DNA of 64,000 bases from an uncultured delta proteobacterium (GTDB lineage Bacteria > Desulfobacterota > Binatia > Binatales > Binataceae), in NCBI GenBank assembly GCA_963842085.1, contig CAWJET010000001.1:64001-128000 (forward strand). The letters are read 5' to 3'. How positions within the stretch are numbered: the stretch's first letter is position 1; each line of letters starts with the position of its first letter. This document shows positions 302 through 3,919 of this stretch, piece by piece. A program made the translations under genes and the position numbers. Below the pieces are notes generated by a model. That model did not search any database. It was not told where the DNA came from and worked only from the letters and a program-made list of their open reading frames with translations.

Positions 302-964
302 TTATTTTTCCCTGACTCCGGTAATACCCGCTTTCTCGAGACAGTCCGCGAGTGCTTCCTTGGCCCTGTGATACTTCGACGCGACCGTTCCGTGGGGCAA
401 CCCCAGAGTCTCAGTTATTTCCTTGTAGGCGAGCCCCCTTTCTCTCATCCAGAAGATCTCTTGGTCAATCTGCAGGATCTGTTGGATACACCTGCCGAGC
501 TTCGTGCGGATCTCCAAACCAATCGCCTGCTCCTCGGGTCCTGGCGAAGGATCGGTGAAAACGTCGAAGGATCGCAAGAGGTCGCCGCCTTCGGTGGAGT
601 CCGTCGGTTGTTCAAAGACTTCGAGCTTGCGGCCGTGTTTTCGCAGGCAACTCCTGGCCTCATTCTCGGTGATGACTTTGAGGTACGCGCGGAACTCGTG
701 TTCAGATGATCCGCGAAAGCTCTTGAGCCCGCCGTTCAGCAGGACCGTGAAAACGTCCTGAAAGAGATCGTCAAGCGCTTCCTTTTCGAGATTTCGAAAC
801 TTCTGCAGTAGACGCCAAATCAGGGGACCGTATTGGCGAACGACTGTCTCCCAAGCCTGCACCTCTCTCGCAGAGGCTCGCGCGAGAAGATCTCGTATGT
901 CCATCCTCGACTTATCCGCGGACTTTTTGGGCGTGGAAAAAAATTCGGTGACAGGAGTCTCCAT
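302..964 (-). CDS. ECF-type sigma-70 factor
   Basis: Region 2 (DDLFQDVF...YLKVITENEARS) and region 4 (GLAYKEITETLGLPHGTVASKYHRAK) motifs. Confidence 0.9.
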   Translation of the reverse strand: METPVTEFFSTPKKSADKSRMDIRDLLARASAREVQAWETVVRQYGPLIWRLLQKFRNLEKEALDDLFQDVFTVLLNGGLKSFRGSSEHEFRAYLKVITENEARSCLRKHGRKLEVFEQPTDSTEGGDLLRSFDVFTDPSPGPEEQAIGLEIRTKLGRCIQQILQIDQEIFWMRERGLAYKEITETLGLPHGTVASKYHRAKEALADCLEKAGITGVREK

Positions 965-1008: not shown

Positions 1009-1365
1009 ATGGAGGATTTGGCGATGTTGAATATCAAATGGCTCGGAAAGATCGTGCTCGCGGCGGCCGTTACACTCACGGCGGCTTCCCCCTCACGCGC
1101 AGATGAGTACGTGCACGGTTACTACCGCAGTAACGGCACGTACGTCCAGCCTTACTCTCGGAGCGAACCGGACGGAAATCCCTACAACAATTACAGCTAT
1201 CCGGGCAATTTGAACCCGTACACCGGTCAGGTCGCACCTGGAAATACGGACACCTACCTCAGGAACTACTACGAACGCGAGGGGGGCTCCAGCGGATACG
1301 GATCGGACTACGACGCTGGCTCAGATGGAGGGTCAACCTCAGGTGACGGTTCCGGAGACGAGTAG
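1009..1365 (+). CDS. Secreted hypothetical protein (GYYRSNGTYV...GNLNPYTG motif)
   Basis: Signal peptide; GGAGG SD at 1010-1015 suggests true start at ATG 1024; paralog of 1857-2138. Confidence 0.75.
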   Translation: MEDLAMLNIKWLGKIVLAAAVTLTAASPSRADEYVHGYYRSNGTYVQPYSRSEPDGNPYNNYSYPGNLNPYTGQVAPGNTDTYLRNYYEREGGSSGYGSDYDAGSDGGSTSGDGSGDE

Positions 1366-1407
1366 CGGCGTGGGGCTCGACTAGCGAATAGACAAGGGTG
1401 AAGAAAA

Positions 1408-1860
1408 ATGAATCGGAATAAAAAGTTTTCTTTCTGGCCGGCGGTGGGTGATGAACAGGCGGCGGTCCTCGCCGCCCGTCAGGGCTTTCACGCGGCCGTG
1501 TACTGTTCGATCGTGACGGCGATTTTCGCGGTCTTGGGCGGTTTCGGATTTAAGATCATGGATTTTGATCTGTGGAACCTTACCGACGCTGCTCTCATGG
1601 CGCTGCTCGCTTTCGGGATTCGCCGAATGTCGAGAACGGCCGCTCTGATTGCGTTTCTGTACTACGTTGCTGGACGAATAGATTTGTGGACCGAGTACGG
1701 TTCCCAGAATGCAGTCATTGCCGGAATCTTCGTTTTGATGTTCCTGTCGGCTGTACGTGGCACATTCGCCTATCACCGTTTGAGGCCGCGACTTGAAGGG
1801 TTGAATCAGGTTCCGGCAGCCGATCCCAGCGCAGACCTTTCGCTCGAGGCTATCATATGA
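1408..1860 (+). CDS. Hypothetical membrane protein
   Basis: About four hydrophobic segments; ATGA overlap with next gene. Confidence 0.7.
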   Translation: MNRNKKFSFWPAVGDEQAAVLAARQGFHAAVYCSIVTAIFAVLGGFGFKIMDFDLWNLTDAALMALLAFGIRRMSRTAALIAFLYYVAGRIDLWTEYGSQNAVIAGIFVLMFLSAVRGTFAYHRLRPRLEGLNQVPAADPSADLSLEAII

Positions 1861-2138
1861 AGATCCACCTGGTCATTGCGTGTGCCATCGGACTGGCCTC
1901 AGCTCTGATGGTTCCAAAAGTTGCGACGGCGGGAAGATATCGCCCGTACGCTCAGAGTCAGATGAGGGTTCACTCGCCTCACTCACCCGTTCACGTGAGG
2001 AGCTACATCCGGCATGACGGGCAGTACGTTGGTCCCCATTTCAGAACTGCGCCCAATCACACCAAGCTAGACAACTGGAGTACTCGCGGAAACGTTAATC
2101 CGTACACAGGAAAAATCGGGACGAAGGCGCCCTTTTAG
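1857..2138 (+). CDS. Secreted hypothetical protein (DGQYVGPHFRT...GNVNPYTG motif)
   Basis: Signal peptide; motif shared with 1009-1365. Confidence 0.75.
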   Translation: MKIHLVIACAIGLASALMVPKVATAGRYRPYAQSQMRVHSPHSPVHVRSYIRHDGQYVGPHFRTAPNHTKLDNWSTRGNVNPYTGKIGTKAPF

Positions 2139-2141
2139 GAT

Positions 2142-2383
2142 TTGAATTCTGCGCCGCGAGAGAATGCCGTGCTCCAACAAGGTTCAGTTATCGGGGGTCG
2201 CTACGAAATTGTCGATCTTCTCGGCGGTGGGGGAATGAAGCAGGTATCGCTCGCCCGCGACCGAAGGCTCGGCGGCCGACTCTGCGCGCTGGCGGAAATG
2301 ATCGATTCCTTCGCAGCTCCGAAGGCGCGCGCGGCGGCAGAGGCTGCATTCAGACGCGAAGCCGAACTGCTTGGGAGCCTGAG
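2142..2383 (+). pseudogene. N-terminal fragment of a Hanks-type Ser/Thr kinase truncated by IS3
   Basis: IGGRYEIVDLLGGGGMKQVSLARD...FRREAELL (subdomains I-III); homology ends at the IS left end 2384. Confidence 0.85.
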
Positions 2384-2471
2384 TGTTCCCCGTCAGCACA
2401 AGTTGGACAATTCGAGGCGATTGAGGAAGAGAGGGTTTTTGGCTCATCTTTAACCGCGGAAGGAGCGGTAG

Positions 2472-2846
2472 ATGAGATCGAAAATCGATGCGCAGTCGGA
2501 TGGGGCGGAAAAGGCGGTACGCGACATAAGGCGGGCGACCCGCCGGCACTTCTCGGCTGAGGACAAGGTCCGGATCGTGATCGCCGGCCTGCGCGGCGAG
2601 GATAGCGTGGCCGAGTTGTGCCGCAAGGAAGGGATCAACCAGAACCTCTACTATCGCTGGTCCAAGGACTTCCTGGAGGCGGGCAAGAGGCGGCTGGCCG
2701 GCGATACCGCGCGTGAAGCGACCAGCGATGAAGTCAAGGAGCTGCGGGCGGAGAGCCATCAGCTCAAGGAACTGCTGGCCGAACTGATGATGGAGAACCG
2801 CCTGCTCAAAAAAAGCGTGCTGGCGGATGGGGAGTCCGATATATGA
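2472..2846 (+). CDS. IS3 transposase OrfA (HTH)
   Basis: RRHFSAEDKVRIV...SVAELCRKEGINQNLYYRW; A7G slippery site 2808-2815. Confidence 0.9.
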   Translation: MRSKIDAQSDGAEKAVRDIRRATRRHFSAEDKVRIVIAGLRGEDSVAELCRKEGINQNLYYRWSKDFLEAGKRRLAGDTAREATSDEVKELRAESHQLKELLAELMMENRLLKKSVLADGESDI

Positions 2847-3856
2847 GGTACGCGGCCGCCGAGAAGCTGGAGATCATCCGGCTGGTCGAGCAGTCGTCGC
2901 TGCCGGTGCGGCGCACCCTGGAGCAGATCGGCATCCCACGGTCCACCTTCTATTGCTGGTACGATCGCTATCGAACTCGCGATGATGAAGGGCTGGAGGA
3001 TCGCACGCCGGCGCCGCGGCGGGTGTGGAACAAGCTCCCAGCTGCAGTTACTCAGGCCGTGCTCGAGCTTGCGCTCAAAGAACCGCAGCTATCGCCGCGG
3101 GAGTTGGCGGTCTCGTTCGTCGACCAGCAGCAGTACTTCGTCTCGGAAGCCTCAGTTTATCGGCTGCTGAAGGCGCACGACCTGATCACCAGCCCGGCCT
3201 TCATCTTGATGAAGGCAGCCGACAGCTTCGCCCATCCAACCACCGCACCCAATCAACTCTGGCAGACCGACTTTACCTACCTGCGGGTGATCGGCTGGGG
3301 CTGGTTCTATCTGTCGACTGTCCTTGATGACTTCTCGCGCTATATCCTGGCCTGGAAGCTGTGTACCACCATGACTGCCACCGATGTCTCCGACACCCTC
3401 GCGATGGCGCTGCGCAACTCCGGGTTGGAGCGCGTCCGCGTCCGGCACCGGCCGCGCCTGCTGAGCGACAACGGACCGTCGTACGTGTCGGCCCAGCTTG
3501 GCTCCTGGCTCGCGGAGCATGGCATGATGCATACCCGCGGCAAGCCCTATCACCCGATGACCCAGGGTAAGATCGAACGTTACCATCGTTCGATGAAGAA
3601 CCAGATCCTGCTCGAGAACTACTACCTGCCCGGTCAGCTCGAAGCGCGCCTGGCCGAGTTCGTCGACTACTACAACTCGCGCCGCTACCACGAAAGTCTC
3701 AACAACCTGACCCCGGCCGACGTCTACTTCGGCCGAGGTCCCGCGATTCTGTCACGGAGGAAAAATGCCAAACTGAAAACCATCGAAGCCAGACGCCGGC
3801 TGCATCATTCGTTCGCAGCCAAAGGTTCAACTCAGATGGACCAGATCCTCTCTTAA
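2843..3856 (+). CDS. IS3 transposase OrfB (DDE/rve)
   Basis: WQTDFTY, LSDNGPSY, GKIERYHR motifs; -1 frame relative to orfA. Confidence 0.93.
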   Translation: MRYAAAEKLEIIRLVEQSSLPVRRTLEQIGIPRSTFYCWYDRYRTRDDEGLEDRTPAPRRVWNKLPAAVTQAVLELALKEPQLSPRELAVSFVDQQQYFVSEASVYRLLKAHDLITSPAFILMKAADSFAHPTTAPNQLWQTDFTYLRVIGWGWFYLSTVLDDFSRYILAWKLCTTMTATDVSDTLAMALRNSGLERVRVRHRPRLLSDNGPSYVSAQLGSWLAEHGMMHTRGKPYHPMTQGKIERYHRSMKNQILLENYYLPGQLEARLAEFVDYYNSRRYHESLNNLTPADVYFGRGPAILSRRKNAKLKTIEARRRLHHSFAAKGSTQMDQILS

Positions 3857-3919
3857 TTCCTGTGCCAACTTGTCCAATAGGTTCTGACGACGTACAGGGG
3901 GCGGGGTAAGGAAGGCGAT

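Follow-up and report, generated by a model that had tools for sequence, protein, structure and literature searches.

The window, a stretch of 64,000 nucleotides, carries the 5' remnant of a Hanks-type Ser/Thr kinase gene (2142-2383, plus strand, 80 codons), recognized by translation and homology. The open reading frame in which it lies (2142-2453, plus strand) translates into LNSAPRENAVLQQGSVIGGRYEIVDLLGGGGMKQVSLARDRRLGGRLCALAEMIDSFAAPKARAAAEAAFRREAELLGSL, in which the kinase residues are followed by 23 unrelated codons read from an insertion sequence. The true start of the gene is likely the GTG codon at 2169, judging from the MLQQGS start of an intact ortholog. The Gly loop of the remnant reads GGGGMK, with Lys33 (codon AAG, 2238-2240, plus strand) at the position of the third Gly (GxGxxK), and the beta-3 strand reads CALAEM (2283-2300), with Ala51 (codon GCG, 2292-2294, plus strand) at the position of the VAIK Lys. 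The Glu of the alpha-C helix was retained as E73 in FRREAE (codon GAA, 2358-2360, plus strand). Among the alpha-C Glu, the HRD-Asp, the Asn and the DFG-Asp, it is the only one that survives in the window, the others having been cut away. The earlier note had picked out this Lys and this Ala from the letters, and translation confirmed their coordinates.

The register of the two residues was fixed by two canonical paralogs of the same genome, which read GGGGMG...CAIKEM and GVGGMG...VAVKEM, and by the HMMER alignment of an intact paralog with the solved StkP. A DNA pattern covering both motifs matched once in the window, against 0.00 matches expected from 100 shuffles. The Pfam search of the 80-aa fragment alone gave no family match, even at E up to 10. 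The fragment was assigned to the Pkinase family because it is 52% identical (E 1e-19) to the intact paralog of its own genome and 82% identical (E 3e-33) to the intact ortholog in a relative, G015. Both of these match Pkinase, so the earlier description of the fragment as a bacterial Ser/Thr kinase was borne out.

The kinase gene is preceded by three small genes (1009-2138, plus strand), found as open reading frames conserved in G015. They encode, in order, a secreted-looking protein of 118 aa, a membrane protein of 150 aa and a second secreted-looking protein of 93 aa, and none of the three matched a Pfam family. An NPYTG motif occurs in both secreted-looking proteins (1009-1365, …NLNPYTGQV…; 1857-2138, …NVNPYTGKI…), which are rich in Tyr, Gly and Asn and conserved in G015. 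Divergent from this string of genes is an ECF-type sigma factor (302-964, minus strand), assigned by Pfam (Sigma70_r2, r4_2) and synteny. No anti-sigma gene was evident within 302-2138 of the window. Regulation of the ECF sigma factor by the kinase is a possibility. The gene order in G015 is the same (ECF sigma factor, small secreted-looking protein, membrane protein, second small protein), and there it leads to an intact ortholog of the broken gene. This ortholog has 614 aa, matches Pkinase with E 4.7e-40 (138 bits), and carries the Gly-loop Lys and the beta-3 Ala together with YRDLKPSN and DFG. Beyond the kinase domain a membrane segment follows, and at the C-terminus there are three repeats that match BamE weakly.

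The nucleotide alignment of the window with the G015 locus covers 1-2383 (78.5% identity over 2402 nt) and stops exactly at 2383, which is the left edge of an insertion sequence and not the end of the gene. This element of 1513 bp (2384-3896, plus strand), delimited by its inverted repeats, open reading frames and copies, cuts the kinase gene. Its ends are 27-nt imperfect terminal inverted repeats (2384-2410 and 3870-3896) of the TG...CA type. Within it lie orfA (2472-2846, plus strand), which encodes the HTH N-terminal part of the transposase (HTH_Tnp_1 in Pfam), and the overlapping orfB (2843-3856, plus strand), which encodes a transposase with a DDE integrase core (rve in Pfam, E 1.4e-27). 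A run of seven A in orfA (2808-2814) is likely a -1 frameshift site. The overlapping HTH and DDE/rve reading frames, the A run and the TG...CA inverted repeats place the element in the IS3 family. The 4.93-Mb genome contains 10 copies of it with 100% identity, the window copy and nine others, and its activity is recent. There are also three more pieces in a degraded state, and contig 1 begins with a relative of the element (89%).

A target duplication is absent at the window copy because its flanks share no matching bases, and most of the 10 copies have no obvious target duplication within their 15-nt flanks. When the flanks of all 10 were compared, no matching pair pointed to a reciprocal rearrangement. 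The 3' part of the kinase was then sought across the genome with two tblastn queries, the paralog from residue 80 to 279 and the ortholog from residue 81 to 614, and it was absent; all matches fell in kinase genes already known elsewhere in the genome. Downstream of the element there is no continuation of the kinase either. With no 3' part past the insertion or elsewhere in the genome, the window copy is therefore a dead, non-functional remnant, which went through an insertion and the loss of about 1.6 kb. The IS3-family element inserted after codon 80 of a gene for a membrane PknB-like kinase.

An intact counterpart with the same two residues exists in the source genome. This paralog, P0002 (L002:1504-3012), has 503 aa, matches Pkinase with E 2.5e-34 (119 bits), and reads GGGGMK...CALAEM...YRDLKPSN...DFG. 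Its score, like that of the G015 ortholog, exceeds the curated cut-off of Pkinase (PF00069), 31.7 bits. Its kinase domain is followed by a zinc ribbon, by a membrane segment and by a C-terminal domain, and its gene sits 3' of the gene of a double-FHA membrane protein. The Lys/Ala clade has a second paralog group, with the ECF-sigma neighbourhood and BamE-like repeats, and the window copy is a member of it. The two canonical paralogs that fixed the register belong to the same subfamily. Directly 5' of a canonical paralog, at L003 1-1443 (G000:C1:2084965-2086407), a gene encodes a kinase-like domain joined to a PP2C-like phosphatase, and this kinase-like domain matches just Pfam positions 52-198.

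To place the Lys/Ala kinases among their relatives, the kinase domain of P0002 was used as the query of a HMMER search against 1.84 billion representatives, and the best 150 proteins were taken. Among these best 150, 172 aligned domains of 130 proteins were obtained, of which 51 were Lys/Ala (Gly loop/beta-3), one was Lys/Ser and one was Lys/Lys; the last is a degenerate second domain of 29% identity. In the remaining domains the loop residue is Gly, Ala, Ser or a different one, and the beta-3 Lys is almost always there. Restriction to first alignments of at least 44% identity spanning positions 19-250 kept 94 of the 150 proteins and removed 56, which were either fragments or multi-domain proteins at a distance. 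Those kept comprised 51 Lys/Ala, one Lys/Ser and 42 in which the beta-3 Lys is accompanied by Gly, Ala or Ser in the loop. The tree had 98 rows, these 94 plus P0002, the G015 ortholog (both with the Gly-loop Lys, here K-type) and the two canonical paralogs of the source genome, and the window fragment was left out. A quick IQ-TREE run was made with the two trait columns removed, SH-aLRT as the only support and the root not inferred.

In this tree, whose candidates were picked by similarity to a Lys/Ala query, a single branch (SH-aLRT 98) separated all 54 K-type rows from the rest, with one change of the trait. The sister group is canonical and includes a paralog from the same genome. The swap arose once on the tree, and the co-occurrence of the Gly-loop Lys and the beta-3 Ala is therefore a single event and not repeated covariation. 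The covariation that the earlier note had proposed to test goes back to one ancestral event.

The conservation of the clade was then compared with that of the canonical relatives, with Lys24 and Ala42, in the alignment positions of the intact paralog, standing for the Gly-loop Lys and the beta-3 Ala. Only positions 24 and 42 separate the clade cleanly from its canonical relatives, and Ser84 does so weakly (0.8/0.2 threshold). The Gly-loop Lys is present in 54 of 54 clade rows, and the beta-3 Lys, a hallmark of Hanks-type kinases, is missing in the window and in all 54, its place being taken by Ala in 53 and Ser in one. The alpha-C Glu and the HRD-Asp were each found in 53 of 54 rows, and Lys144, Asn147, the DFG-Asp, the APE-Glu, Asp196 and Arg250 in all 54, a retention that matches that of the canonical rows. 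Lys24 is one of 12 invariant columns among 268 in the clade rows, whose identity has a minimum of 37% and a median of 54%, on a tree of 28.3 substitutions per site. Two word-index searches added 194 further homologs at the 90% cluster level; Lys/Ala was found in 194 of 194 and all six catalytic residues in 193 of 194. The earlier note had named two findings that would speak against it, namely close homologs with a canonical beta-3 Lys and Gly, or close homologs without HRD or DFG. Neither turned up, since the further homologs and the 54 rows are throughout Lys/Ala or Lys/Ser and keep their catalytic residues in the proportions just given.

The names attached to the homologs were Candidatus Binatus or Binataceae wherever one was given, apart from three short contigs labelled otherwise, and when homologs were sought again starting from P0037, in the most basal subclade, the labels were likewise Binataceae wherever a source was named. 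The distribution was followed with a strict DNA pattern for the swap, GG[G/A]MK-x-V...A-x-A-E. It was found in 146 of 151 genomes of the source's bacterial family, in 28 of 30 genera, and in all 95 family genomes with a completeness of 90% or more and a contamination of 5% or less. The five family genomes without a match are 53-85% complete. The reversed pattern, as a control, had 0 matches in the family genomes. When the phylum was drawn evenly, the pattern occurred in 5 of 401 genomes, all five of that family, and in 0 of the 396 genomes of other families of the phylum.

A scan of bacteria and archaea with one genome per species, which is a sample and not a census, gave at least 118 stretches, and 80 were fetched. 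Among these 80 listed loci, 63 held full K-type kinase domains, four held partial ones and 13 were unrelated chance matches. The 67 kinase loci among them were labelled Candidatus Binataceae, Binatus or Binatia in 29 cases and, in the other 38, as vague delta/proteobacterium metagenome-assembled genomes. In the four partial loci (L048, L051, L065 and L086 of the 67 listed), 52-134 aligned residues translate, which could reflect more broken copies, frameshifts or errors of assembly. Judging from the genomes, the Lys/Ala kinase clade belongs to the core of a single uncultured family of soil bacteria (Candidatus Binataceae/Binatus).

Among solved proteins, the closest sequences were StkP (E 1.5e-36), Staphylococcus aureus Stk1/PknB, and PknB, PknA and PknG of Mycobacterium tuberculosis. 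In the HMMER alignment with StkP, Ala42 stands opposite the beta-3 Lys (VAVK) and Lys24 opposite the last residue of GRGGMA. The AF2 model, which contains no ATP, had a pLDDT of 92 and a pTM of 0.89, and its best Foldseek matches were PknA, Stk1 and PknB (TM 0.74-0.82; PknA 0.82), with WNK3 at rank 35 (TM 0.73) amid other eukaryotic kinases. No WNK was among the 60 best solved sequences, and a search with the N-lobe (38 residues) returned bacterial kinases and one spurious match, with no WNK. None of the NCBIfam models scored above its cut-off, PknB_PASTA_kin being far below. The clade shares with the Hanks kinases PknB, StkP and Stk1 the Gly-loop Met, the gatekeeper Met and the alpha-C RF motif, and both are membrane-anchored with an extracytoplasmic C-terminal part. 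PknB, StkP and Stk1 keep the canonical beta-3 Lys, whereas the clade has neither this Lys nor PASTA domains. These kinases are thus of bacterial ancestry, and the clade is a PknB-like lineage.

As the earlier note gives them, the WNK kinases of eukaryotes read GRGSFKTV in the Gly loop and VAWCEL in beta-3. According to the available text of Kannan 2007 (PMC1821047), Wnk is the sole functional ePK family without K72, and K55 is needed for its catalysis. WNK1 K233 lies at PKA position 55 and the beta-3 residue is Cys, as stated in the accessible parts of that paper and of a review (PMC1821047, PMC12599244). By these descriptions, WNK and the clade both have a beta-3 strand without Lys and a Lys at the third Gly of GxGxxG (PKA position 55), and both retain the alpha-C Glu, the HRD-Asp and, at the DFG position, the Asp. 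The positions were equated by the GxGxxG register, set against the canonical paralogs and StkP, and by the WNK positions in the available published text. Unlike WNK, the clade has Ala and not Cys in beta-3, and its motifs are YRD and DFG. No WNK-type accessory domain was detected by Pfam in the intact paralog or ortholog, which matched kinase-fold families and the zinc ribbon or a weak BamE. None of the results connects the clade with the sensing of chloride.

The likeness of the clade to WNK is thus limited to two positions. Since the clade is nested in bacterial PknB-like kinases and its nearest solved relatives are StkP, PknB and PknA and not WNK, this likeness is likely convergent. The earlier note had left the choice between a convergent and a related family; the bacterial nesting and the canonical sister group favour the former, and the absence of WNK from the best 60 speaks against the latter.

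The positive charge of another kinase-like group has moved in a similar way, since CAK-chloro is described in the available text of Kannan 2007 (PMC1821047) as having it shifted from position 72 to 55. By that text, CAK-chloro are small-molecule kinases of the choline/aminoglycoside type with Met72 and Arg55, and their alpha-C Glu is lost, whereas the clade consists of protein kinases (Pkinase) with Ala and Lys at these positions and the Glu kept. In a 2025 atlas of bacterial Ser/Thr kinases (bSTK), as far as its available text goes, any kinase without the VAIK Lys is counted as a pseudokinase. That text and the review PMC12599244, in the parts available, give seven pseudokinase families (ActPs1-3, GLW, CP1, DYD and DLHK), which also lose the HRD-Asp and/or the DFG-Asp, or have Lys replaced by Arg with the alpha-C Glu lost. 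The same parts invoke WNK solely as a eukaryotic analogy.

The clade and the pseudokinases of the accessible atlas text have in common that the VAIK Lys is absent. Compared by description in that text, the clade keeps the HRD-Asp, the DFG-Asp and the alpha-C Glu, unlike the atlas families. No pseudokinase family described in that text combines a Gly-loop Lys with a catalytic core left intact, and the atlas may include the clade, without comment, in one of its "canonical" families. In our literature search, no published bacterial Hanks kinase turned up whose catalytic Lys lies in the Gly loop, and in the available text of a 2026 WNK review (PMC13686953) the strings "bacteria" and "prokaryot" occur nowhere.

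In the clade the ATP-anchoring Lys of beta-3 has given way to Ala, and the place of the third Gly in the Gly-rich loop is invariably taken by a Lys; we propose that this relocation arose once, independently of WNK. The Gly-loop Lys would reach the ATP site from beta-2, contact the phosphates and pair with the retained alpha-C Glu, after which the HRD-Asp, the Asn and the DFG-Asp would perform ordinary phosphotransfer. The functional argument is built on the long retention of the swap without reversal, the intact catalytic core and the precedent of WNK. On this basis the intact members are probably active kinases with a relocated catalytic lysine, and we infer from the sequences that they bind ATP via this Lys and are catalytically active.

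The clade could instead consist of pseudokinases, serving as ATP-binding or nucleotide-free scaffolds or switches in which the Gly-loop Lys has a structural or regulatory role. The usual sequence definition, as worded in the available text of the atlas preprint and the review, would class them so for want of the VAIK Lys, and the canonical paralogs of the same subfamily in each genome could be the active partners. Against this, the remaining catalytic residues are no less strictly conserved than in the canonical relatives and Lys24 is invariant like the catalytic core, while the seven families of the atlas and review texts lose the HRD-Asp and/or the DFG-Asp, or the alpha-C Glu, as well; we therefore regard the pseudokinase reading as unlikely. 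It is very unlikely that the members are active with Lys24 not being the replacement, in which case another basic residue or an altered mode of metal or nucleotide binding would serve, and Lys24 would be fixed for another cause, e.g., regulation or substrate contact. A candidate for such a residue is the alpha-C Arg63, which is common in the clade (47 of 54 rows) and, by the available atlas text, dynamic in bacterial kinases, but it is equally common in the canonical relatives (30 of 44), and at the 0.8/0.2 threshold no position other than 24, 42 and the weak Ser84 separates the two groups.

The odd motifs of the window could, finally, have come from mutational decay of a pseudogene fragment. 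The window copy is truly truncated and dead, yet both residues occur in the intact ortholog, in the intact paralog and in every clade member examined. We rejected decay as the cause of the motifs on these grounds and leave it practically no chance, in line with the earlier judgement that simple pseudogene decay is unlikely.

A family-wide bacterial clade with a WNK-like rearrangement of two residues, accompanied by canonical sister paralogs in the same genomes, constitutes a natural experiment. Two positions set the active-site layouts cleanly apart, and swap mutants could therefore be used to probe the moving of the ATP-anchoring lysine; they could also show what a relocated lysine buys a kinase. 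The rule that a kinase without the VAIK Lys is a pseudokinase probably mislabels a whole clade. One could go further and suppose that placing the lysine in the Gly loop is a kinase design which recurs, can be selected and brings a regulatory property of its own, the Binataceae clade being one of several independent bacterial inventions, but this is speculative and we give it little credence. Chloride regulates the WNK kinases, and by comparison such a property might be sensitivity to a small anion, to an osmolyte or to the conformation of the Gly loop. If this were true, the active site of WNK would be a convergent solution and not a eukaryotic oddity. The biology of the window itself is modest, being that of one gene copy destroyed by a recently active insertion sequence.

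In two members of the clade, P0012 and P0022, a Lys stands one or three residues past the beta-3 Ala (…VLAKMV and …ALAEIK). These residues might have arisen secondarily, close to where the Lys used to be.
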